Assembly: GCA_963821765.1 (NCBI GenBank)
Contig: CAWGFF010000010.1
Span: forward strand, 95,400 to 159,399
Source of the DNA: an uncultured Acidobacteriota bacterium
Lineage (GTDB): Bacteria; Acidobacteriota; Terriglobia; Acidiferrales; UBA7541
Direction: 5' to 3'
Length of the DNA: 64,000 nucleotides
Shown here: piece by piece, positions 607 through 37,348 of the stretch
Position numbering within the stretch: position 1 is the stretch's first letter
Layout: every line of letters starts with the position of its first letter
The notes under the pieces: generated by a model
Database searches by the model: none
The model's input: the letters and a program-made list of their open reading frames with translations, nothing else
What the model was told of the DNA's origin: nothing
Translations under genes and position numbers: made by a program

Positions 607-740
607 TCGGCGTTGTTTCCCCGACAATAAGGTTAGTCCGCAGGCAACCTAAACATGCTGCCGAGGTAAATTTGCGCTCAGCATACGGAAGACTGTTTGG
701 TTTCGGGACTGCTTCGGGGAGCCCGTCGAGGAGAACTTTT

Positions 741-3700
741 ATGAGTCGTACTATAGGGCGCGCTGCGCAATATTTCGTTCGCGTTTTCTCGCTATCGGTT
801 CTGCTGCTGTTTGCGAATGGCGCTGACGCACAGAACACCATCTCGACCGTCGCCGGCGGCGCACCTCCCAACAATGTTTCTCCCACGGCTGCGCCGATCG
901 AGGGACCGCAAGCAATGGTTCGAGATTCCGCGGGGAATCTTTATGTGGTAAACGACAACGGCGTGATCTACAAGGTGACCGCTGGGACACCGGCACCTGC
1001 CATGTCCATTTACGCCGGAAATAATACCGCGGGATTTTCGCCGAACGGAACGCTGGCGACTGCGACGCTGTTGTATGAACCGATCGGCGCGGCGGTGGAC
1101 GCTGCCGGCAATTTTTACTTTTCCGATCAGAACAACTGTGTGGTGCGCGAGATCGTCGCTGCCAGCGGAGTGATGAACACCGTGGCGGGCACGGCGGGCG
1201 TATGCAATTATTCGGGAGACGGCGGGCAGGCAACGAGCGCGGAACTGAGTTTCCCGCAAGAGGTCGCGCTTGATGGTACGGGGGATCTTTATATCGCGGA
1301 CATTGGCAACAGCATCGTTCGCCGCGTTAACTTGACGAGTGGAATCATTACGACTTACGCAGGCATTCCCGGCACTCCAGGATTTCCCACTAACAACGTT
1401 CTGGCAACCTCGACGTCGCTGGCTGCCCCGGTAGCTTTAGCGGTAGATGGCGGCGGAAATCTTTTCATCGCTGACGAGAACGACAACATTATTTGTCGTG
1501 TGGACGGCACGTCGAAAAATATCACGATCGTGGCCGGAACTGGCGCGTTCGGATACAGCGGCGACGGTGGCCCGGCAACCGCGGCGAAGATGCGAGCGCC
1601 GGACGGTGTGGCGGTAGATAGTGCGGGAAACATTTATATCTCCGATACCCAAAGCGCAGTGATTCGGGAAGTGTTCTCGCCGACGAATCCGAATACCCCG
1701 AACCAAATTACGACAATCGTCGGCACCGGCACTTTCGGGTTCAATGGTGACGGAGCGGCAACTTCGATCGAGCTGACCAATCCTGCCGGACTTTACGCTG
1801 ATCCCCCCAGCGGTAACCTGTGGATCGCAGATTACTGGAGCAATCGGGTTCGCATGTACAACGCGACCACGAAGACGGTTTCGACTGTAGTGGGGAGCGG
1901 CGCAGTGGGCGACGGTGGGCAGGCAACCAGCGCCAGCTTGTATTACCCGCGTAATCCCGCGCTCGATTCCAGTGGCGATCTATTTCTAGTTGATGCGCAA
2001 AACAATCGAGTCCGTGAAATCAGCGCCGCGGACCAAACAATTTCAACGGTGGTGGGCACCGGGATTCCGTGTGCACGACCAGCACTACCGTGTGGGGACG
2101 GAGGTCCCGCCGCGCAAGCTGCACTTTTTCAGCCGCGCACGGTCACGGTGGAACCGTCTGGGGTGTTGATCGTCGCGGACGATGGCGACAATCGAATTCG
2201 CGAAGTGGATGCCGGAGGCACGATCACGACGATTGTGGGATCCGGGAATCTGTGCACGGCTCCTTTTTCGTCGTGCGGCGATGGTGGACCTGCGCTTAGC
2301 GCCAGCTTGAACGACGCGCGGGGAGCGGTGCTGGATGCGGCGGGAAATCTTTATTTCGTGGACGCGCAGGACAATCGCGTTCGTGAAGTGGACACGACGG
2401 GAACGATCACAACGGTCGCGGGAGGTGGAGCTGATGGGAACGCACCGGTCGGATGCCTTCCGGCGGGAAATCTTTCCGGGGACGGAGGGCCAGCGGTCAA
2501 CGCAACTTTAGATTGCCCGCTTGGCTTGGATATTGACGCGAGCGGCAATCTGTATGTGGCCGACACAGATAATAATGTGATTCGTAAAATTGACACAGGC
2601 ACGCCGCGCATTATCACGACGATCGCCGGGACGGGAACCGCTGGACACACCGGCGATGGGGGCTTGGCCACGAGCGCGACTTTGCGTACTCCGGATAGAG
2701 TGTCGGTAAATGGCGCTGGCAATTTTTTCATCTCTGATTCGGGGAATAACGTGATTCGGCGCGTGGACGGAACGAGCAAAATCATCACGGCGTTTGCGGG
2801 AAGCGGGACGTTTGCATTCTCAGGCGATGGCGGCCCGGCACTTTCGGCTAGCTTTGCTACGCCGGTGGGAATCGTGGTAACCCCTGAAGGCAATATGTAC
2901 GTGGGCGACGTGTTCAATAACCGGATCAGGAAAGTTCTACTAACTCCGAACGTAGCTCTTTCCAGTGCAACGGCGGCGTTCGCAAACCAGCCGATTAACG
3001 TGAGCGCGACTTTGCCGGTGACATTGACCAATTCGGGAGACGCGCCGCTGGCGATTTCAGACATTGCGATTACTGCGGGCGCGTTTTCGCTAGCCACATC
3101 CGCGAATCCGTGTCCAGCAGCGCCTACGACACTGGCGATTGGCGCTCGGTGCGAGATTGACGTTGCATTCACGCCAACGCAATTTATTGCTTACACCGGA
3201 ACGGTTACGATCTCTGACAACGCACCGACCGCGGGAAGCACGCAGACAGTGAATCTTTCGGGCATGGGCGCCGCGGGGTTGACGGTCACGGTGAGCGGCT
3301 CTGGAACTGTGACCAGCGCGCCGGCGGGGATCAGCTGCCCGACGACTTGTGCGGCTACGTTCGCAGGCAACAGCGCAGTGGTATTGACAGCGACGGCGGG
3401 CACGGGCTCGACTTTCACCAGTTTCAGCTCGAGCTGCACGCCGGCTAGTCCGCAGACGAATCCCCCGAGTTGTACTGTGACGATGAGCGCCGCCGAGACA
3501 GTAACGGCGACGTTTAACACTTCAGCCACAGGATCGATATCGATTGCGCCGACTACGTTGACGTTCGGCAGTCAGGCGGTCGGTACGACGAGCACGACAC
3601 AGACAGTGACGGTGTCGAACACCGGTGGGACTACGGTGACGTTCACGAATATTGTGACGAGCGGGGATTTTGCCGGCGCGACGCTGGCGCAATGCCCGAG

Positions 3701-5042
3701 CATCGCGGTGGAAGGTACGCCGTGCGCGTTTCAGATTTCGTTCAAGCCGACGGCGACGGGGACCCGTACCGGAGCGATCACGTTTACGGATAACGCGACG
3801 GGAAGTCCACAGTCCGTGACATTGACGGGGACGGGAACGCCGGCGACGGGGGAGACGATTTCGGTTACGCCGACATCGTTGACGTTCGGCAGCCAGGCGG
3901 TGGGAACGACGAGCGCGGGGCAAACGGTGACGGTGTCGAACACGGGTGGGACTACGGTGACGTTCACGAACATTGTGACGAGCGGGGATTTTGCGGGGGC
4001 GACGCTGGCGCAATGCCCGAGCATCGCGGTGGAAGGTACGCCTTGCACGTTTCAGATTACGTTCAAGCCGACGGCGACGGGAACGCGCAACGGGACGATC
4101 ACATTTACGGATAATGCGACGGGAAGTCCGCAGACGGTGACGCTGACGGGGACAGGCACGCCGGGAACGGCGACGGTGACGGTGACGCCGAGCAGTTTGG
4201 TGTTTGGATCGCAAGCGTTGACGACGACGAGCGCGCCGTTGAGCGTGACGGTAACGAACACGAGCAGCGCAGCAGTGAATTTCGCGGGCTTTACGACGAG
4301 CGGAGCGGATGCGGAGGATTTTGGAGTGCCGCTGCCGAACACGAGTTCGGGATGCAGTGCGGCGGGGACGTTGGCGGCGGGAGCGAGTTGCACGATCAGT
4401 GTGGTATTCACGCCGCAGGCGAATGGGACGCGGACGGCGACGTTGAATATTGCGGATAATGCGACGGGAAGTCCGCAGATGGTGGCGTTGAGCGGGACGG
4501 GAGTGACATCGCAAGTGATTATAGCGGTGGCGCCGGGAGGGAGTACGACGGCGACGACGGTGTCGGGAGGGACGGCGTATTACGGATTGGTGATCAGCGG
4601 AGCGCCGGGAGTGACGGGGACGGTGCAGCTGGGATGCATACCGTCGTCGGTGTTGATAACGTGCAAGGTGATACCGAGTACGGTGACGTTGACGGGCGGG
4701 GCAACGGAAGTGGCGTTTGCGATACAGACGTACTGCCAGGGGAGTACGACGGCGACGGGAATGGTAGCGCCAATGGTCGGAGGAAGTGGCGGGGGGATTG
4801 GGTGGATGCTGGTTTCGATGGTTTTCGGTGGAGCGATGTGGACGATGCGGAGGAAGCGGCGAGTGGCAATGACGTTTGCGACGTTGCTGCTGGTGGCGTT
4901 GGGAATGGCAGCTTGCAGCAATAGTTTGCCGCAGGGGCCGAACGGGGCGACGCCGGCGGGGACATATACGTTGTCGTTGACGACGACTTTGAATGGACAG
5001 ACGCAGACATTGAATAACTTTTTGACGCTGGTGGTGAAGTAG
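741..5042 (+). CDS. giant secreted NHL-repeat surface protein with choice-of-anchor-D-like Ig modules and a C-terminal TM/Arg-cluster signal
   Basis: ORF 672..5042. I prefer ATG 741, which has GAGGAG at 728-733 and the signal peptide MSRTIGRAAQYFVRVFSLSVLLLFANGADA/Q. About 10 units of [YF]xGDGG[PQ]A plus NHL-type propeller repeats (GNLY[IFV]xDxxNNxIR). One PGxxF..-type InlB-B-repeat-like module. Three ~107-aa modules (LTFGSQAVGTTS...VSNTGGTTVTFT...F.P...G......F.DNATGSPQ). Confidence 0.9.
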   Translation: MSRTIGRAAQYFVRVFSLSVLLLFANGADAQNTISTVAGGAPPNNVSPTAAPIEGPQAMVRDSAGNLYVVNDNGVIYKVTAGTPAPAMSIYAGNNTAGFSPNGTLATATLLYEPIGAAVDAAGNFYFSDQNNCVVREIVAASGVMNTVAGTAGVCNYSGDGGQATSAELSFPQEVALDGTGDLYIADIGNSIVRRVNLTSGIITTYAGIPGTPGFPTNNVLATSTSLAAPVALAVDGGGNLFIADENDNIICRVDGTSKNITIVAGTGAFGYSGDGGPATAAKMRAPDGVAVDSAGNIYISDTQSAVIREVFSPTNPNTPNQITTIVGTGTFGFNGDGAATSIELTNPAGLYADPPSGNLWIADYWSNRVRMYNATTKTVSTVVGSGAVGDGGQATSASLYYPRNPALDSSGDLFLVDAQNNRVREISAADQTISTVVGTGIPCARPALPCGDGGPAAQAALFQPRTVTVEPSGVLIVADDGDNRIREVDAGGTITTIVGSGNLCTAPFSSCGDGGPALSASLNDARGAVLDAAGNLYFVDAQDNRVREVDTTGTITTVAGGGADGNAPVGCLPAGNLSGDGGPAVNATLDCPLGLDIDASGNLYVADTDNNVIRKIDTGTPRIITTIAGTGTAGHTGDGGLATSATLRTPDRVSVNGAGNFFISDSGNNVIRRVDGTSKIITAFAGSGTFAFSGDGGPALSASFATPVGIVVTPEGNMYVGDVFNNRIRKVLLTPNVALSSATAAFANQPINVSATLPVTLTNSGDAPLAISDIAITAGAFSLATSANPCPAAPTTLAIGARCEIDVAFTPTQFIAYTGTVTISDNAPTAGSTQTVNLSGMGAAGLTVTVSGSGTVTSAPAGISCPTTCAATFAGNSAVVLTATAGTGSTFTSFSSSCTPASPQTNPPSCTVTMSAAETVTATFNTSATGSISIAPTTLTFGSQAVGTTSTTQTVTVSNTGGTTVTFTNIVTSGDFAGATLAQCPSIAVEGTPCAFQISFKPTATGTRTGAITFTDNATGSPQSVTLTGTGTPATGETISVTPTSLTFGSQAVGTTSAGQTVTVSNTGGTTVTFTNIVTSGDFAGATLAQCPSIAVEGTPCTFQITFKPTATGTRNGTITFTDNATGSPQTVTLTGTGTPGTATVTVTPSSLVFGSQALTTTSAPLSVTVTNTSSAAVNFAGFTTSGADAEDFGVPLPNTSSGCSAAGTLAAGASCTISVVFTPQANGTRTATLNIADNATGSPQMVALSGTGVTSQVIIAVAPGGSTTATTVSGGTAYYGLVISGAPGVTGTVQLGCIPSSVLITCKVIPSTVTLTGGATEVAFAIQTYCQGSTTATGMVAPMVGGSGGGIGWMLVSMVFGGAMWTMRRKRRVAMTFATLLLVALGMAACSNSLPQGPNGATPAGTYTLSLTTTLNGQTQTLNNFLTLVVK
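3535..4500 (+). repeat. three tandem ~321-bp coding repeats (Ig-like modules) inside gene 1
   Basis: ttgacgttcggca recurs at 3558 and 3879, giving a 321-bp period. Units 1 and 2 are clearly similar at nucleotide level and unit 3 is more divergent. The repeats are in frame and coding. Confidence 0.85.
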
Positions 5043-5276
5043 GGAGGGGATCGTAACCGGAAGGGCTGAGACGGGAAGAGAACCAGAGGCAAAGGAGAGC
5101 CCGGTGGTGCGTTGCGGGACGGGGCGCTACAGATTCAAAAACAAATTCAAAAACAGGGCGAAAGTGAACGGCGCCCATCCGGCAAAGGCGGGATGGGCGC
5201 TGGAAAGTCAAAGTCAAAGTCAAAGTCAACTACGCCCGCCTGAAGGCGGCCGCTACAAATTCAAGAACAAATTCAA
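3823..5276 (+). repeat. segmental duplication copy A (partner 11628-13081)
   Basis: Constant offset of 7805 bp to copy B. I found only about 10 mismatches (3851, 3853, 3919, 3920, 3923, 4176, 4595, 4772, 4836, 4887). Confidence 0.95.
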
Positions 5277-5395
5277 AAGCAACTTCAAGAACGACCTCAA
5301 AAACAACTTCAACAACGCCCGCCCAAAAAAAGCAGGCGCCCGCTACAAAGTCAGATTCAACGTCAACTTCAGAGTCAAAGTCAGAGGCCGGTGCG
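5110..5395 (+). repeat. cluster of three direct REP-like units plus perfect 10-bp-stem hairpin and (AAGTCA)4
   Basis: Heads are ggggcgCTACAgattcaaaaacaaattcaaaaac (5121-), ggcggccgCTACAaattcaagaacaaattcaaaag (5245-) and ggcgcccgCTACAaagtcagattcaac (5345-). Hairpin is gcgcccatcc/ggatgggcgc (5171-5200). (AAGTCA)4 lies at 5205-5228. Confidence 0.65.
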
Positions 5396-5597: not shown

Positions 5598-5959
5598 CTC
5601 GGGGCGTGAGAGTTTTTGTGTTGATTCAGGGCAGTTTTCTCTCACTGGCAGGGTGCCGAGGGCGAGGACTGGGTTGATGAAAAAAGCAGTCGCTGACGAC
5701 TTGTCGCTCGTGGTTCGAAGGCGGTCGGGATGCGGCTCGGCGGCGCCCGAGTTCGGGCGGTGGGGGTGTCTGTGGCTTCCCAGTTGCAGTATCAGGGTTA
5801 GGTCGTGGTGGTCTTCGCAGAGGCGCAACAACGAACAGGCCCTAAGTTCTTTGCCAACAGGATGATGCGGATGGATGGCGGCCCCTCGCCGGCGGGTCGG
5901 CGACGGAGTATGCGCAAAGTTTTGCACTTGTATCCGTATTGTTTGCTGCGGGAGGAAAT

Positions 5960-8900
5960 ATGTCGCTAAGGCGCAGTTTGAGACGCGCGTCGGGATTTCT
6001 GGTGTTAGGGATTTGTATGCAAATTGCGAGCGTTCTGCCGCAGGGCGGATTGTCCGCGCAGACCGCGCCGAAGGCCGGGGATGGAAGCGGAGCGAATGCT
6101 CAGGAGCAGCAGAAAATCGCGGCGAGCGCGATTAAAATGCCGCTGTTTTTTGAGGCGAACGAAGGGCAGACGGATCCGAGCGTGCGATTTTTGACGCGCA
6201 GCAGCGGTTACACGATGTTCCTGACGCCGACGGAAACCGTGCTGGTGGAAGGCAAGAACGGGATCGTGAGCGATGACAAATTCGGGAAGGGACTGACTGC
6301 GTTCCGCGCGGATGCGAAGAATGCGAAGCAGTCTGTGCTGCGGATGGAATTGCTGGGCGCGAATGCGGCGCCGGACTTTCAGGGATTGCAGCAGTTGCCG
6401 GGGAAAGTGAACTACCTGATCGGGCAGGATCAGGCGGCGTGGCACACGAACGTGGCGCTGTTTTCCGAAGTGCAGGTGGCGAAAGTTTATCCGGGTGTGG
6501 ATTTGCTGTTTCACGGCGACCAGCGGCAACTGGAATACGATTTTGTGGTGGCGCCGGGAGCGGATCCGGGGCGGATTGGATTCAGGATTCGCGGGGCCAA
6601 GAAAATCGAGATTGACGCGAACGGCGATTTGATTTTGCACACGGCGGATTCTGAATTCGAAATGCGGAAGCCAGTGATTTATCAGGGCGAGGGGGCGAAC
6701 CGCAGCGAAGTGCAAGGAAGATTCGTATTGAGCGCGAAAAACCAGGTGCGCTTCGAGCTGGGGCCGTACGATCACGCGGAAAAATTGGTAATTGATCCGG
6801 TGATTTTCTTCTCGTCATTCTTGGGGGGCGCGGGGCTCGACCTGCTGCAGGCGGTGGCGGTGGATACGTCCACTCCCGGAGCACCGAAGGTTTACGTGAC
6901 GGGGTTCACGGACGACATCGCGACGTTTCCGGAGCCCAGCGCAAAGGTGGGGAATCCCTCGACCGCCGCAGGCGAGGAGAATGTTTTTGTCGCGGAAATT
7001 GATGCGACAAAGACGGGCAGTCCGTCGCTCGTGTATTTGACTTTCATCGGAGGCAGCACGCCGTTCACGGCGCTGGGTGGGACGGTTTGCGGTACTTCGT
7101 CCGGATTCCTCGCGCTGGATACCAGCCAAGGGGCTGCGAGCGTTGAGCCAGTAATTGGAGGTCTGACGCTATGCAGCGATTATCCCGGGACAGTGCTAAA
7201 TCCGGTAACAGCGACAGGCACTGACGCCAGCGCGACAGTGGTAACGCGCCTGAAGCCCGGCGGCGCGGCAATTGACGCATCGGTGCTGCTGGGCGGCAAC
7301 GGATTGATGGCAACCGGATACGTGTTCACGGATGCTGTGGGAAATGTACTTTTGACGGGGGCGACGGGTTCAACGAACTTGCCAACCAGTGCGGGGGCTT
7401 ACGCGACGGAATTCAACAACGGCGCGACGGGAGCGTTCGACGATTGCTATACAGTGAAGCTGGCGCGGTCAAATCTGACACCGGGTTATTTCAGCTATTT
7501 GAACGTGGGAGCGAGCAGCGTCAGCGGGCAGGCGGCGGGATGCGGCGGAGTGATTGATTCGGCGAACGAAAACATCCTGTACTTGGGCGGCGATACAGAA
7601 TCGAGCGTGGCGTTCAGCGGAGCAGCTGCCGGGGTGCTGGGATTCCAAAGCACATTCCATGGAACGATCGACTCGTTTGTGATGAAGCTGGACACGAGTG
7701 TAAGCGGATTCGGCGCGTTGAAGTATGCCACGTATGTGGGAGGCGGCGGGAAGACCGACGTCCAGACGGGAGCGGTGGAGCTGGGCACGGGCGTGGTTGC
7801 GTTAGCGGGCCGGACAACTTCGAACAGCACGACGAACGCTCCGGACATTGTGACTGCAAATGCGCTAAGCGGGGGAAGCAGCAATCCGGCGGCGGCTTCC
7901 ACGGGTGGCCAGGTCGGTTTTCTGGTGGTGATGGACACGACCAAAAGTGGTCTGGCGAGTCTCCTTTCGGGCAGCTACTTCGGCGGGACCAGCGGTCAGG
8001 ACGAGATCCGCGCGCTGGCCTACGACCCTTTGGTTCTCTCCGGATACAACATCATTGTGGGTGGAGACACGGCGTCCACGGATTTTCCGGTGCTCCATCC
8101 ATTTCAGGGATCGCTGGTAGGAACGCAGGATGCATTCGTTTCGTCGTTCCTGATAACACCGACCTCGGCGCAGACATTGTTCTCGAGTTACATCGGCGCC
8201 GGGGGCGTTTCAATTGGTGGCGTGTCCGTGGCGGAAAATTCCATTGCCGCGATCGGCGTGGACACAGGGCATGCGATGTACGTTGGCGGCAATGCGAGCT
8301 CGGGAAGTTATTTCGACAGCACGACGCCAACAACGACGGTGAACGGATTTCAGACGACCTGCACGAGTTGCAGCGGTACGGTTCCGGAACCCGATGCGAT
8401 CATATTTGCGCTGAAAACGGCGCCCGGAGCGGCGCTAAGTACGGTGAGCGCTTTTCCCGCGAGTGTGGGAACGCTGGCAGTGGGCGGCACACAGCAATTT
8501 TCGGCGCTGGGACTCTATGGCGACGGAACTTTTCAGGATCTGACCAGTGAGGCGACGTGGAATTCTTCGAACACGGGAGTGCTGCAGATCGGATCGACGG
8601 GATTGGCCACGGCGGTGGGCAGCGGCACGGCGACGATCACCGCACAATTTGGGGGGCTGACCTCGGCGGGAGTATTGGTCACCGTTTCAGGTGGCGCGTC
8701 AACGTTCAAGGTGCAATTGGTGCTGGAGGGAACGGCGTACGGCACGGTCACGGACAGCACTGGCGCGATCGATTGTACGAATACAACGGCACAGGGCGCG
8801 ACGGGGACGTGCACAGCGAACTTTAACACCAACGCGCAGGTGACGCTGACGGCGACTCCGGGCTCCGGATCGGTGTTTGGCGGGTGGGGCATAAGCAACG

Positions 8901-11900
8901 TCTGTCCCGGGACAACGGCGACGTGCACGTTCACGATCACCGCGGACCAAGAGCTTTCGGCGACGTTCAACAACGGGACGGGAAATTTCGCGTTGAGCGT
9001 GATTCCTGGCGGCACGGCGACGGGCGGCGGGATTGTGCTCGGGAACATCGGCGGGACGGGAACGGCGATTGATTGCACATTGAGTGGGACGACGACGCCG
9101 ACGGGAGTTTGCTCGCAGAACGTATTGAGCGGATCGATCGAGACGCTTACGGCGGAGCCGAACGCGACATCGAATTTCACGAGTTGGACCGGACCGTGCG
9201 TGATACCCACAGGACAACCGGCAAAGTGCGTGGTGACGATGGGCGCGGCGCACACTGTTACGGCGCTGTTCACGGCGCAGACGAGCAGTTTTACGGTGGC
9301 ATTGACTGGAAACGGGACGTTGACGAGCACTTCGACGCCGACGGTCACGCCGGAAATTAACTGCGCGAATCCGGCGCCGCCGAGTGCGTGCTCGACGAAT
9401 TTTGCGTCGGGGACGCAGGTGACTTTAACGGCGACGCCCGCGACAGGGTACTCGTTTACGAATTGGACGGCGGGACCGTGCGCCGGAGCGACGAATCCGT
9501 GCGTATTTACGGTGAGCAGCACCAGCCCAACGAGCGCGACGGCGTTATTTACGATAAACACTTATCCGCTGACGGTGAATCGCGCGGGGACTTTGGGAGG
9601 AACGGTCGCGAGCAACGTAGTGAATGGGCTAGGCGGCAGCATCAGCTGTGGGCCGGCCGCGGGGATTCAGGGTTGCTCGGTGACTGCGACGTATAACACG
9701 CCGGTCATTTTGACGCAAACGCCGCCTTCGGGTGGCGGTTTTGGCGGGTGGAGCGGGACGCCGACTGCGTGCACTGTGGGAGCTACGACTTGCACTTTCA
9801 ATATGCCCGCGGGACTGGAAACAGTGACGGCGACGTTTACGGCGGTTTCCGGAACCGACGCGGATCTGTCGATCGGGATACTCGCACCGGGGAGCGTAGC
9901 GCTCGGCGGGAGCGTGCCGTACACAATCACGGTGACGAACAATGGTCCCGCGAACGCAACGGGCGTGACCATGAGTGATCCAGTGCCGAATGGACTGCAA
10001 CCCATCGGGATCTCTGGACCGAGTTGTGAAATGCAACTAAACGTTGGCACTGAGCAATACACCGTGTTCTGCAACATTGGCAATCTAGCCAGCGGCGCCA
10101 GCTCAACGATAACGTATAGCGTGACGCCTACGGCGACGGGAGGCTTGACGAATACGGCGACCACTGGGGGAACGCAAACGGATCCGAACACGGCCAACAA
10201 TTCAGCGACGGTGAATACGTCAGTGACATCGGGGACCTCGAGCCCGGTGATCGTGGCGGACTTTAATGTGAACGGCGAGGGCGACGAGGACAAACAGCGA
10301 GTGGATGGAACGAGTAAGCCGCTGCAGGTGACGTTGACGAACACCTCGACCACGCTGACCGTGCACGTCAGCGGCGTTACACCGACTGCTCCGTACACAG
10401 CGACGACCGACTGCGGGACGCTAGCGCCTGGAGGGACCTGTCACGTGTTTATCGGTTTCAAGCCGGCCAGTGTTTGCCAGGACGAAACGGACCAAATAGT
10501 GACAGTGAACGACGATGATCCAGGCGGCAATTTCCAGATGACGATACACGGCTGGGGCGCAGACAGCGTGATCAAGGTGGATGATCTTACGGATTCCACA
10601 CTAACGCCGACGGCGCTGGCGCAGAGCCTAGTGGGGGCGGGAGTAGCAATCAGCAACGTTAAGTACACGGGCGCGCTCCGTGCCGCGGGCACGTTTACAA
10701 GCAGCTCGAATGTTCTGGGCTTTACGAATGGAATCGTGCTGAGTTCAGGATCGGCACGCAACGTAGCAGGCATGAATTGTGAAAACGGAATGTCGGTGGA
10801 CAACGGCGAGCCAGGCGATGCGGATCTGAACACGATCGTGGGTAAGGGAAATATCACGAACGACGCATCGGTATTGGAATTTGACTTTGTGCCGACGAGC
10901 TCGACGATCAGTTTCCAGTATGTGTTCGGTTCGGAGGAATACCCGGATTTCATCGGGTCGTTTAACGACGTGTTCGGATTCTTCCTGACGGCGCCGGGCG
11001 GCGCGCCAGTGAATCTGGCGCTAATTCCCGGGACGGACCTGCCCGTATCAATCAACGATGTGAATGACGGCAATACGACCGTCACTCCCCCGATACCTCC
11101 GACAAATCCTCAGTTCTACGTGAACAACCAGGTGCAATTCTCGGCAACCGGACCGTTGCCGCCTGTGGATACCGAGCTAAATGGGTTGACCACGGTGCTA
11201 GGGGCGCAAGCTACGGTAACTCCCGGGTTGACGTATCACATCAAGCTCGCAGTGGCCGACGCGAACGACTTCGCGCTGGATTCGAACGTATTTGTGCAGG
11301 CGGGAAGCTTGTCGAGCGCGAGCGTAACGGCGAACCCGACGTCTCTGGCTTTCGGAAATCAAGCACAGGGGACGACGAGCGCGTCGCAGCCGGTGGTGAT
11401 TACGAATGTGGGCACGACCACGGTGACGATCACGGGAATTGCGGCGAGCGCGAATTTCGGCGAGAGCAACGCTTGCCCGACAACTCTTGCGACCGGCACG
11501 GGCACGGGATCGAGCTGCACGGTGAACGTGACGTTCACGCCGACGGCTACGGGGACACTGACGGGGACGGTGACGGTGACGTACACGAGCACGGGCAGCG
11601 CGACGCCGCAAACGACGACTATCACGCTGACGGGGACGGGAACGCCGGCGACGGGCGGGACGATTTCGGTTACGCCGACATCGTTGACGTTCGGCAGCCA
11701 GGCGGTGGGAACGACGAGCGCGGCACAGACGGTGACGGTGTCGAACACGGGTGGGACTACGGTGACGTTCACGAACATTGTGACGAGCGGGGATTTTGCG
11801 GGGGCGACGCTGGCGCAATGCCCGAGCATCGCGGTGGAAGGTACGCCTTGCACGTTTCAGATTACGTTCAAGCCGACGGCGACGGGAACGCGCAACGGGA

Positions 11901-12847
11901 CGATCACATTTACGGATAATGCGACGGGAAGTCCGCAGACGGTGACGCTGACGGGGACAGGCACGCCGGGAACGGCGACGTTGACGGTGACGCCGAGCAG
12001 TTTGGTGTTTGGATCGCAAGCGTTGACGACGACGAGCGCGCCGTTGAGCGTGACGGTAACGAACACGAGCAGCGCAGCAGTGAATTTCGCGGGCTTTACG
12101 ACGAGCGGAGCGGATGCGGAGGATTTTGGAGTGCCGCTGCCGAACACGAGTTCGGGATGCAGTGCGGCGGGGACGTTGGCGGCGGGAGCGAGTTGCACGA
12201 TCAGTGTGGTATTCACGCCGCAGGCGAATGGGACGCGGACGGCGACGTTGAATATTGCGGATAATGCGACGGGAAGTCCGCAGATGGTGGCGTTGAGCGG
12301 GACGGGAGTGACATCGCAAGTGATTATAGCGGTGGCGCCGGGAGGGAGTACGACGGCGACGACGGTGTCGGGAGGGACGGCGTATTACGGATTGGTGATT
12401 AGCGGAGCGCCGGGAGTGACGGGGACGGTGCAGCTGGGATGCATACCGTCGTCGGTGTTGATAACGTGCAAGGTGATACCGAGTACGGTGACGTTGACGG
12501 GCGGGGCAACGGAAGTGGCGTTTGCGATACAGACGTACTGCCAGGGGAGTACGACGGCGACGGGAATGGTAGCGCCCATGGTCGGAGGAAGTGGCGGGGG
12601 GATTGGGTGGATGCTGGTTTCGATGGTTTTCGGTGGAGCGGTGTGGACGATGCGGAGGAAGCGGCGAGTGGCAATGACGTTTGCGACGTTGTTGCTGGTG
12701 GCGTTGGGAATGGCAGCTTGCAGCAATAGTTTGCCGCAGGGGCCGAACGGGGCGACGCCGGCGGGGACATATACGTTGTCGTTGACGACGACTTTGAATG
12801 GACAGACGCAGACATTGAATAACTTTTTGACGCTGGTGGTGAAGTAG
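5960..12847 (+). CDS. giant mosaic secreted surface protein (SBBP-type N-region, Big_2, InlB-B-repeat-like x4, DUF11, choice-of-anchor-L-like, choice-of-anchor-D-like modules, C-terminal TM/Arg-cluster signal)
   Basis: ORF 5939..12847. ATG 5960 is preceded by GGAGG (5951-5955), with signal peptide MSLRRSLRRASGFLVLGICMQIASVL. Motifs seen: PLFFEANEGQTDPSVRFLTRSSGY (N-domain typical of SBBP propeller proteins), LAVGGTQQFSALGLYGDG...TATITA (Big_2), four TATPxxGxxFxxW...C.F modules, ADLSIG...YTITVTNNGPANATGV (DUF11) and GDADLN...ISFQYVFGSEEYPDFIGSFNDVFGFFL (choice-of-anchor L). The tail is identical to gene 1. Confidence 0.9.
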   Translation: MSLRRSLRRASGFLVLGICMQIASVLPQGGLSAQTAPKAGDGSGANAQEQQKIAASAIKMPLFFEANEGQTDPSVRFLTRSSGYTMFLTPTETVLVEGKNGIVSDDKFGKGLTAFRADAKNAKQSVLRMELLGANAAPDFQGLQQLPGKVNYLIGQDQAAWHTNVALFSEVQVAKVYPGVDLLFHGDQRQLEYDFVVAPGADPGRIGFRIRGAKKIEIDANGDLILHTADSEFEMRKPVIYQGEGANRSEVQGRFVLSAKNQVRFELGPYDHAEKLVIDPVIFFSSFLGGAGLDLLQAVAVDTSTPGAPKVYVTGFTDDIATFPEPSAKVGNPSTAAGEENVFVAEIDATKTGSPSLVYLTFIGGSTPFTALGGTVCGTSSGFLALDTSQGAASVEPVIGGLTLCSDYPGTVLNPVTATGTDASATVVTRLKPGGAAIDASVLLGGNGLMATGYVFTDAVGNVLLTGATGSTNLPTSAGAYATEFNNGATGAFDDCYTVKLARSNLTPGYFSYLNVGASSVSGQAAGCGGVIDSANENILYLGGDTESSVAFSGAAAGVLGFQSTFHGTIDSFVMKLDTSVSGFGALKYATYVGGGGKTDVQTGAVELGTGVVALAGRTTSNSTTNAPDIVTANALSGGSSNPAAASTGGQVGFLVVMDTTKSGLASLLSGSYFGGTSGQDEIRALAYDPLVLSGYNIIVGGDTASTDFPVLHPFQGSLVGTQDAFVSSFLITPTSAQTLFSSYIGAGGVSIGGVSVAENSIAAIGVDTGHAMYVGGNASSGSYFDSTTPTTTVNGFQTTCTSCSGTVPEPDAIIFALKTAPGAALSTVSAFPASVGTLAVGGTQQFSALGLYGDGTFQDLTSEATWNSSNTGVLQIGSTGLATAVGSGTATITAQFGGLTSAGVLVTVSGGASTFKVQLVLEGTAYGTVTDSTGAIDCTNTTAQGATGTCTANFNTNAQVTLTATPGSGSVFGGWGISNVCPGTTATCTFTITADQELSATFNNGTGNFALSVIPGGTATGGGIVLGNIGGTGTAIDCTLSGTTTPTGVCSQNVLSGSIETLTAEPNATSNFTSWTGPCVIPTGQPAKCVVTMGAAHTVTALFTAQTSSFTVALTGNGTLTSTSTPTVTPEINCANPAPPSACSTNFASGTQVTLTATPATGYSFTNWTAGPCAGATNPCVFTVSSTSPTSATALFTINTYPLTVNRAGTLGGTVASNVVNGLGGSISCGPAAGIQGCSVTATYNTPVILTQTPPSGGGFGGWSGTPTACTVGATTCTFNMPAGLETVTATFTAVSGTDADLSIGILAPGSVALGGSVPYTITVTNNGPANATGVTMSDPVPNGLQPIGISGPSCEMQLNVGTEQYTVFCNIGNLASGASSTITYSVTPTATGGLTNTATTGGTQTDPNTANNSATVNTSVTSGTSSPVIVADFNVNGEGDEDKQRVDGTSKPLQVTLTNTSTTLTVHVSGVTPTAPYTATTDCGTLAPGGTCHVFIGFKPASVCQDETDQIVTVNDDDPGGNFQMTIHGWGADSVIKVDDLTDSTLTPTALAQSLVGAGVAISNVKYTGALRAAGTFTSSSNVLGFTNGIVLSSGSARNVAGMNCENGMSVDNGEPGDADLNTIVGKGNITNDASVLEFDFVPTSSTISFQYVFGSEEYPDFIGSFNDVFGFFLTAPGGAPVNLALIPGTDLPVSINDVNDGNTTVTPPIPPTNPQFYVNNQVQFSATGPLPPVDTELNGLTTVLGAQATVTPGLTYHIKLAVADANDFALDSNVFVQAGSLSSASVTANPTSLAFGNQAQGTTSASQPVVITNVGTTTVTITGIAASANFGESNACPTTLATGTGTGSSCTVNVTFTPTATGTLTGTVTVTYTSTGSATPQTTTITLTGTGTPATGGTISVTPTSLTFGSQAVGTTSAAQTVTVSNTGGTTVTFTNIVTSGDFAGATLAQCPSIAVEGTPCTFQITFKPTATGTRNGTITFTDNATGSPQTVTLTGTGTPGTATLTVTPSSLVFGSQALTTTSAPLSVTVTNTSSAAVNFAGFTTSGADAEDFGVPLPNTSSGCSAAGTLAAGASCTISVVFTPQANGTRTATLNIADNATGSPQMVALSGTGVTSQVIIAVAPGGSTTATTVSGGTAYYGLVISGAPGVTGTVQLGCIPSSVLITCKVIPSTVTLTGGATEVAFAIQTYCQGSTTATGMVAPMVGGSGGGIGWMLVSMVFGGAVWTMRRKRRVAMTFATLLLVALGMAACSNSLPQGPNGATPAGTYTLSLTTTLNGQTQTLNNFLTLVVK

Positions 12848-13081
12848 GGAGGGGATCGTAACCGGAAGGGCTGAGACGGGAAGAGAACCAGAGGCAAAGG
12901 AGAGCCCGGTGGTGCGTTGCGGGACGGGGCGCTACAGATTCAAAAACAAATTCAAAAACAGGGCGAAAGTGAACGGCGCCCATCCGGCAAAGGCGGGATG
13001 GGCGCTGGAAAGTCAAAGTCAAAGTCAAAGTCAACTACGCCCGCCTGAAGGCGGCCGCTACAAATTCAAGAACAAATTCAA
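11628..13081 (+). repeat. segmental duplication copy B (partner 3823-5276)
   Basis: See copy A. It includes the last ~400 codons, the stop codon and ~235 bp of downstream REP-like DNA. Confidence 0.95.
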
Positions 13082-13202
13082 GAACAAATTCAAAGGCAAA
13101 TTCAGGAGCATCAGAGGCCGTTTCGCAAAGTGGGAGGGCCACTGCAAGGGCACGCCACGTCCGTCGGTCGCTTGTGGCTCGGGTGATTAGCGGCGGGCGG
13201 CG

Positions 13203-28209: not shown

Positions 28210-30573
28210 ATGGATCGGCGAGAATTTCTGCGGGATTTGGGAGTGACGACTGCGGCGCTGGGGTATGTGGCGACTGGGGAGCGAGTCGCAGCTGCTGAGC
28301 GGGCAAAGGCGGCAATGTTTGATCCGACGATGGAGTCGGGTCTGAACTCGGGAGCGGCACCGGACGTTGCGGGTCACACTTTAGTTTGCGAATTCAAAAT
28401 TGGCGCGACTGGGTGGAAGGTTTACGAAGATTTGCGAGCGCGCGACGGGGCGATCACTTTTATTTCTGCGGCGGGAGCGTCGCGAGTTTTGCCGAAGAGC
28501 ACGGAGGCGACTTTCGCGGAAACTGATCCGCCATATTTGGGATTGAAGCTGGCGGACATTGGAATGGCCGGGCCGGATTTACTGGCAGACAAGCTTTTGC
28601 AGCATGGCGATCCGGATCCGGAGCAGGTGAAATCGGCGGCGCCGCCGCAGGGCACGGCGAAGGAGGAATCGCGCTGGCGATTGCCGTGGAATACATTTGT
28701 GGGAACGAAAGAATGCGCGGACACGATGCCGGTTTTTCCCGCGGGAAACACCAGGACTTACCATCCGGCGCAATATTTTCCGGAGATTACGAATGACGCG
28801 GCGAAAAAAAGATTTGAAGGGTTGATTGGCGGCTGGATGCCGGCGGTGCGCAAGGTGATGCCGAGTTCCGATGGCGCGTATGTGGAAGTGGTGGTGTTTG
28901 GAGACGTGGAGGCGCGCGACCGGTTCATCGTGCAGACCTGGCACCGCACGATGCGTGTGGAAAACGGGAAAGTGGCGATGGTGGTGTACGGGTACAGCTA
29001 TCCCGCATTTCCTCCCACGCGGGAAGATCCGAGCGCGGAGGAATTTCATCGCGCGCTGCTGGTGTTTGCGGCGTACTGGGAAAAACAGCTGCAGGATTTT
29101 GCGCCGGCTGCTTTGCCGGATGGCGCATGGGTGGATATGGCGAAGCACGCGTTCGCTAAGGAATTGATGGTACGGCCGGGCGGAGTGTATCCGAAGTATG
29201 GCGCGGTGGATCGCGATTATTACGGGCCGGAATACGACGGGTTCCAGGATATTTTCACGATGGCGGTGTATGCGAATCTGGAGTGGGGGCGATTCGATGC
29301 GGCGCGGGAGATTATTGATAATTATTTGACGGATTTCACGGACGCGAAGGGAATGATCAACATGCGCGGGCCGGAGACGGCGCAGTTCGGGCTGACGCTT
29401 TTCTTGCTGGCGCGTTATTTCCAATACACACAGGATGCGGCGCTGCTGGTGAAGCATCGCGAGAAGATTGTGGCGACGGCGGCGATTTTGACGGAGTTAC
29501 ATGATGAGAGTTTGAAATTGCCGAAGGATGACGTGGGTTACGGGATTATTCACGGGTGGAGCGAGTCGGATTCGTGTTTGCATCCCAAGCCGATGACTTG
29601 GTGGCTGCCTTATTTTGCGAACAACGCGTTTGCGGCGCGGGGATTGAAGGATATCGGCGGAGTGTGGCCGGCGATTCGGCCGGGCGAGGGAGTTGCGGCG
29701 GCAGCCTGGTTGAAGCGCAGCAAGGATTTGCAGGACGCGGTGATTGCGAGCATGCAGAAAAACGTGCGGCGCGACGTGACGCCAGCGTATATCGGACCTT
29801 TGCCGGGTACGACTTTGATGTTTCGCGAATCGCTGGAAAAAGAGTATCCCAGCCCGCAGCAGTGGGTGCATCGCGCTTATGCGGAGTTGCTGCAGCCGGA
29901 CGTGTTGCCCGCGGATTTGGCGAACACGGTGATTGATTGCATGCGGGCCTATGGCGGAACGACTTTGGGGGTGGTGGCGAATATTGAGCGGCCGCATCCG
30001 GAGGGTCGCGACATTCTGGGATTTATTTCGTATGGATACGCGCAGATGCTTTTGCGGTTGGATCGCGTGGAGGAGTATTTGCTGTTTCTTTACGCGCATC
30101 GTTATCACGATCACACGCGGGGGAGTTGGACGGCGGGCGAAGTTTCGGGAGTGGACGGCGATACCGCGCTATTTTGCATTCCGGCGCAGCAGACGATTCC
30201 TCTATTGGTGAGGTGGATGCTGGTGCTGGAGGATTCGGACGAGGACAGAATTTATTTTGGGAAGGGATTGCCGCGGGAGTGGGTGGCGTCGGGGAAAGAG
30301 ATACGGATTGAGGGCGCGCCGACGCGGTTTGGGAGGGTGAGTTTCAGTATGGCGGCGGATCGTGCTTCGCGAAAAGTGAATGCCAAAATTGATTTGATGA
30401 AGGCTGGCGGAGTGAAGGAAGTGCATTTGAAATTGCGGATGCCATCGGCGAACACGGTGCGGCGTGTGACAGTGAATGGGCGAGTGGTGGAGTTGGGTGG
30501 CGCCACTCGGGATACGGTGATTTTTCTGACGGACGGGGAAGAGCGGTTTGAGGTGGTTGGGGAATTTAGTTGA
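28210..30573 (+). CDS. uncharacterised Tat-exported 787-aa protein (possible alpha/alpha-barrel glycoside hydrolase; function unknown)
   Basis: Tat motif MDRREFLRDLGVTTAAL. Starts 54 bp after GH31 on the same strand. I recognise no family signature. Confidence 0.6.
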   Translation: MDRREFLRDLGVTTAALGYVATGERVAAAERAKAAMFDPTMESGLNSGAAPDVAGHTLVCEFKIGATGWKVYEDLRARDGAITFISAAGASRVLPKSTEATFAETDPPYLGLKLADIGMAGPDLLADKLLQHGDPDPEQVKSAAPPQGTAKEESRWRLPWNTFVGTKECADTMPVFPAGNTRTYHPAQYFPEITNDAAKKRFEGLIGGWMPAVRKVMPSSDGAYVEVVVFGDVEARDRFIVQTWHRTMRVENGKVAMVVYGYSYPAFPPTREDPSAEEFHRALLVFAAYWEKQLQDFAPAALPDGAWVDMAKHAFAKELMVRPGGVYPKYGAVDRDYYGPEYDGFQDIFTMAVYANLEWGRFDAAREIIDNYLTDFTDAKGMINMRGPETAQFGLTLFLLARYFQYTQDAALLVKHREKIVATAAILTELHDESLKLPKDDVGYGIIHGWSESDSCLHPKPMTWWLPYFANNAFAARGLKDIGGVWPAIRPGEGVAAAAWLKRSKDLQDAVIASMQKNVRRDVTPAYIGPLPGTTLMFRESLEKEYPSPQQWVHRAYAELLQPDVLPADLANTVIDCMRAYGGTTLGVVANIERPHPEGRDILGFISYGYAQMLLRLDRVEEYLLFLYAHRYHDHTRGSWTAGEVSGVDGDTALFCIPAQQTIPLLVRWMLVLEDSDEDRIYFGKGLPREWVASGKEIRIEGAPTRFGRVSFSMAADRASRKVNAKIDLMKAGGVKEVHLKLRMPSANTVRRVTVNGRVVELGGATRDTVIFLTDGEERFEVVGEFS

Positions 30574-30627: not shown

Positions 30628-32412
30628 ATGACTGACAAAATGTCGCGCAGGGAATTGTTGAAGACGAGTATGGTTGCGGGCGCTTCGTCCGTGGTGCTGC
30701 GGAAATTGGATGTGGGATTGCAGCCTGAAGCGGCTCCGGAACCGCTCCCAGCCGCTGCTGATGGAGAGATCGTGGCGTTGAATTGCAACGATGGCGTGTA
30801 TGTGCCGCCGCGTGGGGAGAGTTTCTTCAAGTTTGGGTTTGATTTTCCGGAGCCTTCGGTGGCGTTTCAGGGGCTTCTGTTCTCCTTCCGGTTGCACACG
30901 TTTGAGGATTGCTACGGAATGGACCGCGCAAGCATGACGGTGGGAAAAACCGCAGATGGCTTTGAAATGCACTGCTCGCAATTGGTTTGGGCCGGCGATC
31001 AGATGAAAGCGCCAGGGTTGGTGGTGGCGCGAGTGCGGAAGAACGGGGATTATTTCGAGTGGAATGTGACGGCGGAGACGGACCGGCCGATCAAATCAGT
31101 GACTTCGATCGTGCGGGGAGTGCCGCGGGGGCAGGTATCCGTCTCGTGTAACAAGTTTTTCGATCCGAAAGATAACGAGATATCGGTGGAACATCCTTAT
31201 CTTTTTGGCGGGATGACCACACCTTTGGTGGTGATACAGAAAGGCAGCGGGGATTTCTTCTATCTTTCGGCGCGGGACGAGCAGGTGCGGGCGACGCGAT
31301 TTTATATGCAGCCGGGGGATGATGGTTATCGCGTCGAGCTGATTTACGAGGGCGGAGGCTGGGAAAAAAGCAACAAATTGGATAGCGCGACGTGGCGCGT
31401 GGGGCGCGCGGCAAGCATGGACGCGGCTTCGCGGATGCATTTCGAACATGTAGAGCAGGCTTTTCAGATTCCGGATTGGGAGAAGAGGACGGATGTGCCG
31501 GAGTGGTTCCGGGAAATTGCCCTGGTGCTTTCGATTCACGGTATGCACTGGAGCGGATACATTTATAACGACTACGCGAAAATTGGGAAGACACTGGAGT
31601 GGGCCGCGACGCAAATCCCCGCGAAGAACGTGCTGGTTTTTCTTCCGGCGTGGGATGGGCGCTACTACTGGAATTATCCGTTATACAAGGCCGACCCGCG
31701 ATTGGGAGGCGAGGAGGGATTTCGCGCGCTGATCGAGCAAGGGCAGAAGCTGGGATTCCGGATGATGCCGATGTTTGGCGCGAATGTGGCGAACCGGAAG
31801 TTTCCCATGTACGCGAAAGTGGCGAATGCACAGACGGTGCGGATTGACGGCGACGATTTCGCGAATGATTGGGTGGACATGGATAACGACCGGAGCAACG
31901 ATGGCTGGGGTTCGTTCATGAATCTGGCCGTTCCTTCCTGGCGAGAATATCTGGCGGGGCGGATTTCGGAAGTGATTGAGCAATACCATGTGGATGCATA
32001 TTTTTTGGATATTGCGGGAGCGTGGATCAATAATTTGAGCGGCGGAATGTATGAAGGGACCGTGGAATTGGTGAAGGAATTGCGGGCGAAATTTCCGGGA
32101 GTGCTGGCGGTGGGGGAGATGCATTACGACGCGCTGATGTCGTGCATTCCGGTGTACCAGGTGCCGCGGTCGCCTGCTTATCCGGCGGCTTTGACCAAAT
32201 ATGCGCGATCGTTTGAGCATTTGAGCAGGCCGGCGCCGGGACGGGGGAGCACGGGCGTGCATGAGGATGGATTTCAGAAATTCAAGCCGACGATGCCGGA
32301 GGAGAAGCACACGATTCCGACGATTACTGTAGTTGATGATACATTCGCGAAATATCGTGATGTGATGGTCGAGGTGATTGCCGCGGCTAAGGTGCGGGCG
32401 GGGATTTCGTGA
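30628..32412 (+). CDS. uncharacterised Tat-exported 594-aa protein (possible TIM-barrel glycosidase-like; function unknown)
   Basis: AAGGAAGG RBS. Tat motif SRRELLKTSMVAGA. Starts 54 bp after the previous gene. I recognise no family signature. Confidence 0.6.
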   Translation: MTDKMSRRELLKTSMVAGASSVVLRKLDVGLQPEAAPEPLPAAADGEIVALNCNDGVYVPPRGESFFKFGFDFPEPSVAFQGLLFSFRLHTFEDCYGMDRASMTVGKTADGFEMHCSQLVWAGDQMKAPGLVVARVRKNGDYFEWNVTAETDRPIKSVTSIVRGVPRGQVSVSCNKFFDPKDNEISVEHPYLFGGMTTPLVVIQKGSGDFFYLSARDEQVRATRFYMQPGDDGYRVELIYEGGGWEKSNKLDSATWRVGRAASMDAASRMHFEHVEQAFQIPDWEKRTDVPEWFREIALVLSIHGMHWSGYIYNDYAKIGKTLEWAATQIPAKNVLVFLPAWDGRYYWNYPLYKADPRLGGEEGFRALIEQGQKLGFRMMPMFGANVANRKFPMYAKVANAQTVRIDGDDFANDWVDMDNDRSNDGWGSFMNLAVPSWREYLAGRISEVIEQYHVDAYFLDIAGAWINNLSGGMYEGTVELVKELRAKFPGVLAVGEMHYDALMSCIPVYQVPRSPAYPAALTKYARSFEHLSRPAPGRGSTGVHEDGFQKFKPTMPEEKHTIPTITVVDDTFAKYRDVMVEVIAAAKVRAGIS

Positions 32413-35398: not shown

Positions 35399-35449
35399 GC
35401 AGCGAGCCTCCTAATTCGAACTCGAGCCTGACAACGTTGCAGATTGCTG

Positions 35450-37219: not shown

Positions 37220-37348
37220 TTAGCTCCGACCGGCGTTGACGGAAATATTTTGACAGCGATGAGGCAAGAATCCCTGCACGGTGCGCGACCTCTGATGTAG
37301 GCTACCAGCGTTGTAAACTTTTTTGGAGCGCATAGCGAGTTTTGTCCG

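Follow-up and report, generated by a model that had tools for sequence, protein, structure and literature searches.

Two giant genes in a 64 kb stretch of the genome of an uncultured Acidobacteriota bacterium (contig CAWGFF010000010.1, henceforth the window, with positions counted from its first letter) end in the same C-terminal cassette, which consists of a transmembrane (TM) helix, a strongly basic loop, a second TM helix closing on a lipobox-like Cys, and a 41-aa tail. The two genes are referred to here as gene A and gene B. The cassette is probably a C-terminal membrane tether built into the last immunoglobulin (Ig)-like domain of giant exported proteins, with its Cys lipidated by the general lipoprotein pathway. 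The main new point of the analysis concerns the tail, which, as judged from sequence comparison, very probably forms the last two beta strands of that terminal Ig-like domain, with the TM hairpin as an insertion in one of the domain's loops. Acidobacteriota are abundant in soil, and very little work has been done on the giant proteins of their surface or periplasm. The module stands at the end of hundreds of giant proteins and suggests that their C-terminus is fixed to the membrane through the housekeeping lipoprotein machinery and not by a dedicated sortase.

The C-terminal order in both open reading frames (ORFs) is GGSGGG, IGWMLVSMVFGGA[M/V]WTM, RRKRR, VAMTFATLLLVALGMAA, the Cys, SNSLPQGPNGATPAGTYTLSLTTTLNGQTQTLNNFLTLVVK and the stop codon. 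In translation the two copies differ only by one Met/Val exchange, located within the first TM helix (TM1). Counted from the probable starts, the lipobox Cys is residue 1392 of the gene A product (~1433 aa) and residue 2254 of the gene B product (~2295 aa). A preliminary description made from the sequence alone had reported this succession of Gly-rich linker, TM helix, RRKRR, lipobox-like GMAAC and 41-aa tail, and its coordinates and frame were confirmed; a two-helix membrane hairpin, one of the options it offered, is also borne out by the presence of a hairpin with a strongly basic loop. We infer an outside-to-inside orientation for TM1, and a hairpin topology of the cassette as a whole is likely. 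The products of genes A and B are probably both exported; as read from their N-termini, each carries a Sec-type signal with a basic n-region and a hydrophobic core, namely MSRTIGRAAQYFVRVFSLSVLLLFANGADA/Q ending in ADA/Q for gene A and MSLRRSLRRASGFLVLGICMQIASVLPQGGLSA/Q ending in LSA/Q for gene B.

The relation between tail and Ig-like domain can be followed within a single chain in P0219, an FG-GAP protein of 1132 aa that has a canonical cassette and also carries an uninterrupted internal Ig-like domain. The part of P0219 that precedes TM1 matches this internal domain (59% identity, E = 8e-27), whose directly adjoining end is matched by the residues that follow the Cys (62% identity, E = 4e-11). 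The insert between the two halves amounts to ~58 aa and comprises TM1, RRQR, the second TM helix (TM2), the lipobox and GGGG. When the hairpin was removed from the window subfamily domain and the remainder aligned by hhalign to the uninterrupted P0219 domain, the alignment crossed the excision point, both in local mode (96% probability, E = 2e-9) and in global mode (102 columns, 95% probability). In control alignments, the front part alone was placed at P0219 template positions 25-83 (E = 8e-6) and the tail alone at positions 90-105 (E = 4e-6), while permutation of the two halves left only the front part aligned and abolished the tail match. An AlphaFold2 (AF2) model of the last 180 aa shows beta strands, a disordered linker, two helices and a beta hairpin at residues 154-179, with the remaining residue ranges listed in Table 1. 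In Foldseek comparisons with MSP/PapD-like Ig domains of 120-126 aa, alignments of 180-195 columns outscored those of 77-85 columns in TM-score, which is consistent with a tail lying within the modelled sandwich.

Two results limit the evidence for the split domain. A stricter collinear-pair test with default BLAST statistics confirmed the relation in P0219, which among 91 proteins tested was the only one with an internal paralogue close enough for such a proof. As a control, the AF2 model of the cassette alone was uninformative, since it retained the tail hairpin with a predicted local distance difference test (pLDDT) score of ~75-82 even without the Ig front part; pLDDT was therefore not taken as packing evidence. 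A set of 43 junction-crossing BLAST hits, obtained by comparing excised terminal domains with their own upstream sequence without composition correction, was discarded as nearly all Thr/Ser/Gly-rich noise. With hhalign, the excised domain gave no significant alignment to the choice-of-anchor D repeats that its own ORFs contain; these repeats and the terminal domain belong to different Ig types.

Split Ig-like domains with an inserted element, which are hard for homology tools, are present in the giant RTX adhesins FrhA and MpIBP (PMC10865825). The adhesin domains and the window domain share a beta sandwich made discontinuous in sequence by an element inserted in a loop. The adhesin insert, however, is a soluble, outward-facing ligand-binding domain, whereas the window insert is a transmembrane hairpin with a lipobox that would pin the domain to the membrane. 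A split domain would guide construct design, predict a two-chain complex upon cleavage, and explain why annotation and homology tools miss the domain in genes A and B.

The window cassette passes the 37-bit cutoff of the NCBIfam model NF058595 ("invert_tail", lipo-invert putative C-terminal anchoring domain), scoring 39.0 bits with the last 180 aa, 43.3 with the last 104 aa and 42.8 with the last 65 aa. All 30 canonical cassettes tested match the same model with up to 84 bits, and for this reason the window cassette is regarded, with high confidence, as a divergent subfamily of the NF058595 family. Its layout is that of the family, as deduced from the members: TM helix, basic cluster, TM helix ending in a lipobox Cys, and a short strand-rich C-terminal tail, in both cases on large exported Acidobacteriota proteins, with the cassette profile aligning through its end at the stop codon, the extreme C-terminus of the protein. 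An anchor of this kind, offered as an undescribed signal in the preliminary description, is thus already in the curated library, as a "putative" domain only. Two points count against the assignment: the window score barely exceeds the cutoff, and NF058595 is absent from full-length ORF scans of genes A and B even at E ≤ 1. A literature search found no paper describing the lipo-invert domain. The full-length miss is likely to arise from HMMER filters or composition correction acting on long Thr/Ser/Gly-rich proteins, and in genes A and B the anchor domain would probably go unnoticed by annotation pipelines. Pfam gave no match to the cassette or to the hairpin-excised domain even at E ≤ 10.

More distant members of the family have the canonical form ...RRRR...LAAC-GGGSS...GTPAGTYTLTVTATSG..H..LTLTVQ. 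After the Cys the window subfamily reads LP.GPNGATPAGTY where canonical members read GGGSS...GTPAGTY, and it differs from them further by an extra conserved Cys and by the Gly-rich linker before TM1. This third conserved Cys lies in the motif QT[FY]C (69 of 71 subfamily members), at 4731-4733 and 12536-12538 in the window (QTYCQG), where the last strand ahead of the linker ends; it is absent from canonical members and may take part in a disulfide or be modified as a second site.

The cassette is not confined to the two window genes, and the search of relatives called for in the preliminary description returned many further examples. With the last 180 aa as query, 82 close relatives were retrieved, every one of them from Acidobacteriota metagenomes or metagenome-assembled genomes (MAGs). 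Among 1.84 billion cluster representatives, the cassette profile gave 759 matches at E ≤ 1e-3, of which 98 had E ≤ 1e-10; the family-wide figures given below were drawn from listed representatives among these (150 for position, 143 for anatomy). In nearly all listed matches the cassette is at the extreme C-terminus of a protein of 800-3700 aa. A scan with the close-subfamily alignment as query, counting one genome per species, located 51 loci, all in MAGs of Candidatus Acidiferrales and relatives within the Acidobacteriota; for the wider family, taxonomic placement depends on a few source names. In public records such proteins are named after other domains (FG-GAP, choice-of-anchor D, TIGR01451) and never after the lipo-invert domain.

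Conservation is distributed unevenly over the cassette. Among 71 close cassettes, the Cys and the second loop Arg (R98) are found in all and R97 in 68, and the tail has an invariant G-x-T-x-x-G-x-Y and a final invariant L-x-V. A clean parse into TM1, basic loop, TM2, Cys and tail was obtained for 134 of the 143 representatives. In every one of these 134 the residue at position -1 is Ala, Ser or Gly and the loop carries a net charge of +2 to +6; the last basic residue is 17 aa from the Cys in 96, and the tail measures 37-66 aa (median 40). The Cys is the sole invariant residue of the membrane part across the family. The TM1 segment is hydrophobic in 97% of representatives, and a GG motif precedes it in only 74 of 127, the remainder being Pro-rich. 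The top-residue frequency is 0.66 in the linker (mean column entropy 1.6 bits), 0.61 in TM1, 0.83 in TM2 with the lipobox and 0.87 in the tail strands. The latter two match the Ig strand before the linker in conservation, and linker and TM1 are lowest. The higher conservation of TM2 relative to TM1 is as expected if an enzyme reads TM2. Neither GGSGGG nor the internal ATG of the window copies is a family-wide feature.

The TM2 segment has much in common with the signals handled by Lgt, Lsp and Lnt: a positive n-region is followed by an h-region of ~13 uncharged residues, position -1 is occupied by a small residue and position +1 by the invariant Cys. The window sequence (LLLVALGMAAC), 71 of 71 subfamily members and 123 of 134 representatives conform to the PROSITE-type lipobox core pattern (PS51257), and canonical members continue after the Cys with GGGSS, a typical lipoprotein linker. 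Read from the internal Met, the segment also matches, below threshold, the N-terminal signals of the lipoprotein families Mfa1, LppK and LptM. The preliminary description had taken the segment read from this Met for a signal peptidase II (SPase II) precursor; the lipobox part of that proposal holds, but the Met itself occurs in only 8 of 71 close cassettes, with Phe in 44.

On these grounds, the following sequence of events is proposed. An N-terminal Sec signal, recognized from the sequence, would export the passenger. TM1 would serve as a stop-transfer segment, and the RRKRR loop would be kept in the cytoplasm according to the positive-inside rule. TM2 would then re-insert from inside to outside in the fashion of a lipoprotein signal and bring the lipobox Cys to the outer face of the cytoplasmic membrane. 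By analogy with known lipoproteins, Lgt would put diacylglycerol on the Cys, and Lsp would probably cut the chain just before it, behind Ala(-1). The 41-aa tail, by sequence homology, provides the last two strands of the terminal Ig-like domain, and with or without a cut the lipidated piece would therefore remain with the folded passenger. The giant protein would thus have its C-terminus tethered to the membrane by a helical hairpin together with a lipid, with no dedicated sortase required. Lipidation and cleavage, which are argued by analogy, have a slightly better than even chance of being correct. Genes for Lgt, Lsp, a rhomboid, an exosortase or a CPBP-type protein were not found in the 64 kb window. 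The possibility that N-R-R-V-A-L is a twin-arginine (Tat) motif was rejected, since topology by itself predicts a basic loop and an unfolded 41-aa tail needs no Tat.

Several observations speak against processing by Lgt and Lsp. SPase II signals stand at the N-terminus of a protein, with the Cys within about the first 35 residues, whereas the window signal lies 1400-2260 residues into the chain and behind another TM helix, and its "mature" part is 41 aa long and no independent domain; to our knowledge there is no precedent for Lgt or Lsp acting on an internal signal this far into a protein. Lipobox position -3 is mostly Gly, Ser or Met and rarely the classical Leu. After cleavage by Lsp the passenger would keep the TM1-TM2 hairpin, leaving the added benefit of the lipid questionable. 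Finally, signal peptidase I (SPase I) recognizes small residues at -3 and -1, and the common SAA/C junction is compatible with that rule as well.

A more speculative continuation of the lipidation pathway is possible, but doubtful. After the Lsp cut, a triacylated 41-aa peptide would be held to the passenger solely by its two core Ig strands and would constitute a non-covalent lipid anchor in trans. What remains of the hairpin (TM1, loop and TM2) would next be taken off, for instance by signal-peptide or rhomboid-type intramembrane proteases, and the product would be C-terminally lipid-anchored and Lol-transportable to the outer membrane or cell surface. If true, this would be a new route of C-terminal lipid anchoring without a dedicated sortase and a new protein-sorting principle.

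Of the competing explanations, the one that survives best, while still unlikely, is a plain two-helix hairpin anchor with neither lipidation nor cleavage, in which the Cys would have another role, such as a disulfide with the QT[FY]C Cys. The hairpin topology on which it depends is well supported, the non-classical position -3 fits it, and the subfamily Ig front part contains an odd number (three) of conserved Cys residues for which a fourth partner is conceivable. Canonical members, however, lack the QT[FY]C Cys and yet keep the lipobox Cys invariant. The exclusive use of Ala, Ser or Gly at -1, the fixed 17-residue spacing, the stronger conservation of TM2 than of TM1 and the Gly/Ser linker are SPase II hallmarks that a simple hairpin does not need, and they count against this explanation.

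Cleavage of TM2 as an internal signal-anchor by SPase I instead of SPase II would account for the SAA/C junction noted above, but is improbable: the invariant Cys at +1 is defining for SPase II substrates and unneeded by SPase I, and the window residue at -3 is Met, which is poor for SPase I.

Equally improbable is the sorting signal of PEP-CTERM or MYXO-CTERM type seen in the preliminary description, in which the Gly-rich motif, TM1 and Arg cluster would form a tripartite signal cut by rhombosortase, exosortase or myxosortase, with the downstream part discarded. Tripartite signals (PEP-CTERM/exosortase, GlyGly-CTERM/rhombosortase, MYXO-CTERM/myxosortase, and also LPXTG/sortase) likewise end large surface proteins, often after choice-of-anchor domains, and TM1 with the Arg cluster is similar to the second and third elements of such signals (10.1101/2023.06.07.544157; PMC11980579). 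The first half of the cassette has a superficial likeness to the motif/TM/Arg layout (10.1101/2023.06.07.544157), to which the window subfamily adds GGSGGG and a conserved GG inside TM1. MYXO-CTERM probably also yields a Cys-linked lipid anchor at the C-terminal end, similar to the one proposed here. Tested alone, however, the first half stayed below the cutoffs of the curated models, with 7.7 against 16 for PEP-CTERM (TIGR02595), 10.1 against 20 for MYXO-CTERM (TIGR03901) and 13.2 against 23.5 for NPXTG, and GlyGly-CTERM gave no match at E ≤ 10. Tripartite signals terminate at the Arg cluster (10.1101/2023.06.07.544157), whereas the cassette has ~60 further conserved residues past it. There is no PEP motif and, across the family, no conserved signature ahead of TM1, as the count of GG motifs shows. 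The invariant Cys follows TM2, whereas MYXO-CTERM needs one just before its TM helix. Conservation is lowest in the linker and TM1 and highest in the tail that would be discarded, which sits within a folded domain. No enzyme of the kind required was found in the 64 kb window, to which the inspection of co-occurrence was confined.

The least credible explanation is a nested or fused small lipoprotein gene, also raised in the preliminary description, translated on its own from ATG 4845 (12650 in copy B): although the product would fit lipoprotein precursor rules (Lys or Arg in the first 7 residues, Cys at position 24), GGAG lies 11 nt upstream of ATG 4845, and an ATG, GTG or TTG occurs within 8 codons upstream of the basic cluster in 43 of 51 loci, the Met is unconserved, the start-like codons shift in position as expected of a Met/Val/Leu-rich helix and are missing from 8 of 51 loci, the GGAG is imposed by conserved Gly-Gly codons, and the tail, as two strands of the upstream Ig-like domain, would be unable to fold alone. 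Apparent stand-alone cassette genes of 95-96 aa (P0228 and P0253) were rejected as examples, as they keep the Ig front part upstream, severed by a stop or frameshift, and are truncated or frameshifted remnants.

The coordinates of the two genes and of the parts of their terminal modules are collected in Table 1.

Table 1 Positions of the giant genes, the parts of their terminal modules and the 3' repeats in the window. AF2 residue numbers refer to the last 180 aa of copy A.
Feature	Gene A (copy A)	Gene B (copy B)	Strand	Remarks
Gene	741..5042 (ORF 672-5042)	5960..12847 (ORF 5939-12847)	+	Probable starts ATG 741 (first ATG of the ORF) and ATG 5960
Whole module		12314..12844	+	Offset of +7805 from copy A; 97-100% DNA identity to it
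Ig front part (SQVIIAVAPGG...AFAIQTYCQG)	4509..4742	12314-12547	+	AF2 strands 6-76, pLDDT ~80
Linker ending in GGSGGG	4743..4796 (GGSGGG from 4779)	12548-12601	+	AF2 pLDDT <50 at residues 82-99
TM1 (IGWMLVSMVFGGAMWTM)	4797..4847	12602-12652	+	AF2 helix 98-115; holds the non-conserved in-frame ATG (4845; 12650)
Basic loop RRKRR (+5)	4848..4862	12653-12667	+	Presumably on the cytoplasmic side
TM2 + lipobox (VAMTFATLLLVALGMAA-C)	4863..4916 (Cys codon TGC 4914-4916)	12668-12721	+	AF2 helix 120-137
41-aa tail: linker SNSLPQGPNGATPA + two beta strands GTYTLSLTTTLNGQTQTLNNFLTLVVK	4917..5039 (stop 5040-5042)	12722-12844	+	AF2 strands 154-164 and 167-179
Periodic arrays/repeats	5129-5155, 5204-5229, 5255-5317	12934-12960, 13009-13034, 13060-13104		3' of each gene

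Upstream of the shared module the two products have different domains. The gene A product contains NHL beta-propeller repeats and choice-of-anchor D / ASH-type Ig domains before the terminal split Ig domain with its anchor cassette, and the gene B product contains DUF7948, InlB-B-like repeats, DUF11, choice-of-anchor L and choice-of-anchor D before the same terminal module. Choice-of-anchor D is therefore present in both ORFs and choice-of-anchor L in ORF B, in agreement with the domains named in the preliminary description. The choice-of-anchor D and L families owe their name to the varied C-terminal anchors that come after them. Within gene A, positions 3535-4164 are a 321-bp tandem duplication (two copies, 88% identical) that corresponds to two adjoining choice-of-anchor D / ASH-type Ig domains; its second unit recurs in gene B at 11628-11927 with 98% identity.

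Copies A and B are not independent, as ~1.45 kb of DNA (~3830-5290 and 11635-13095), reaching ~250 nt past the stop codon, is 97-100% identical between them; no third cassette copy was found in the 64 kb window. Many other genomes also have two cassette copies 7-8 kb apart. In two-gene genomes, the last 0.9-1.5 kb before the stop codon is ~90-100% identical within the genome and identity then falls abruptly to background, as observed in the window and in seven of the eight other pairs compared (L005/L006, L007/L008, L013/L014, L015/L016, L018/L020, L002/L003, L034/L035 and L009/L012). The pair L009/L012 is weaker (65-93%), and the members of L034/L035 are ~650 kb apart. Between genomes the anchor module has clearly diverged. 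This combination of identity within and divergence between genomes suggests that the 3' anchor module is in concerted evolution, through repeated gene conversion or module exchange. The intergenic DNA 3' of both giant genes holds 12-nt periodic arrays of ACAAATTCAAAA type and an (AAAGTC)4 run among GC-rich inverted repeats, and a similar 12-mer pair is located at 420-442, upstream of gene A.

The cassette-only ORF P0228 (96 aa; L053/L054/L055, 6001-6291) is kept in at least 24 contigs between divergently oriented genes of a glycosyltransferase cluster. It is preceded by ~45 in-frame codons of the Ig front part, ended by a stop, and has the appearance of a truncated remnant.

The other genes of the window encode glycosidases, peptidases, FG-GAP/ASPIC proteins, a large outer-membrane barrel, an OmpA-family protein and a hydroxyproline-type catabolic cluster. 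Two neighbouring plus-strand ORFs of 787 and 594 aa (28210-30573 and 30628-32412) gave no Pfam match at E ≤ 1e-3. Three adjoining paralogous FG-GAP/ASPIC(UnbV) genes of 577, 589 and 577 aa, two on the minus strand and one on the plus strand, occupy 33665-39082 and have TPR proteins on their flanks; the anchor cassette is absent from all three. FG-GAP repeats are a common passenger also in canonical lipo-invert proteins, for example P0219, P0192 and P0208.

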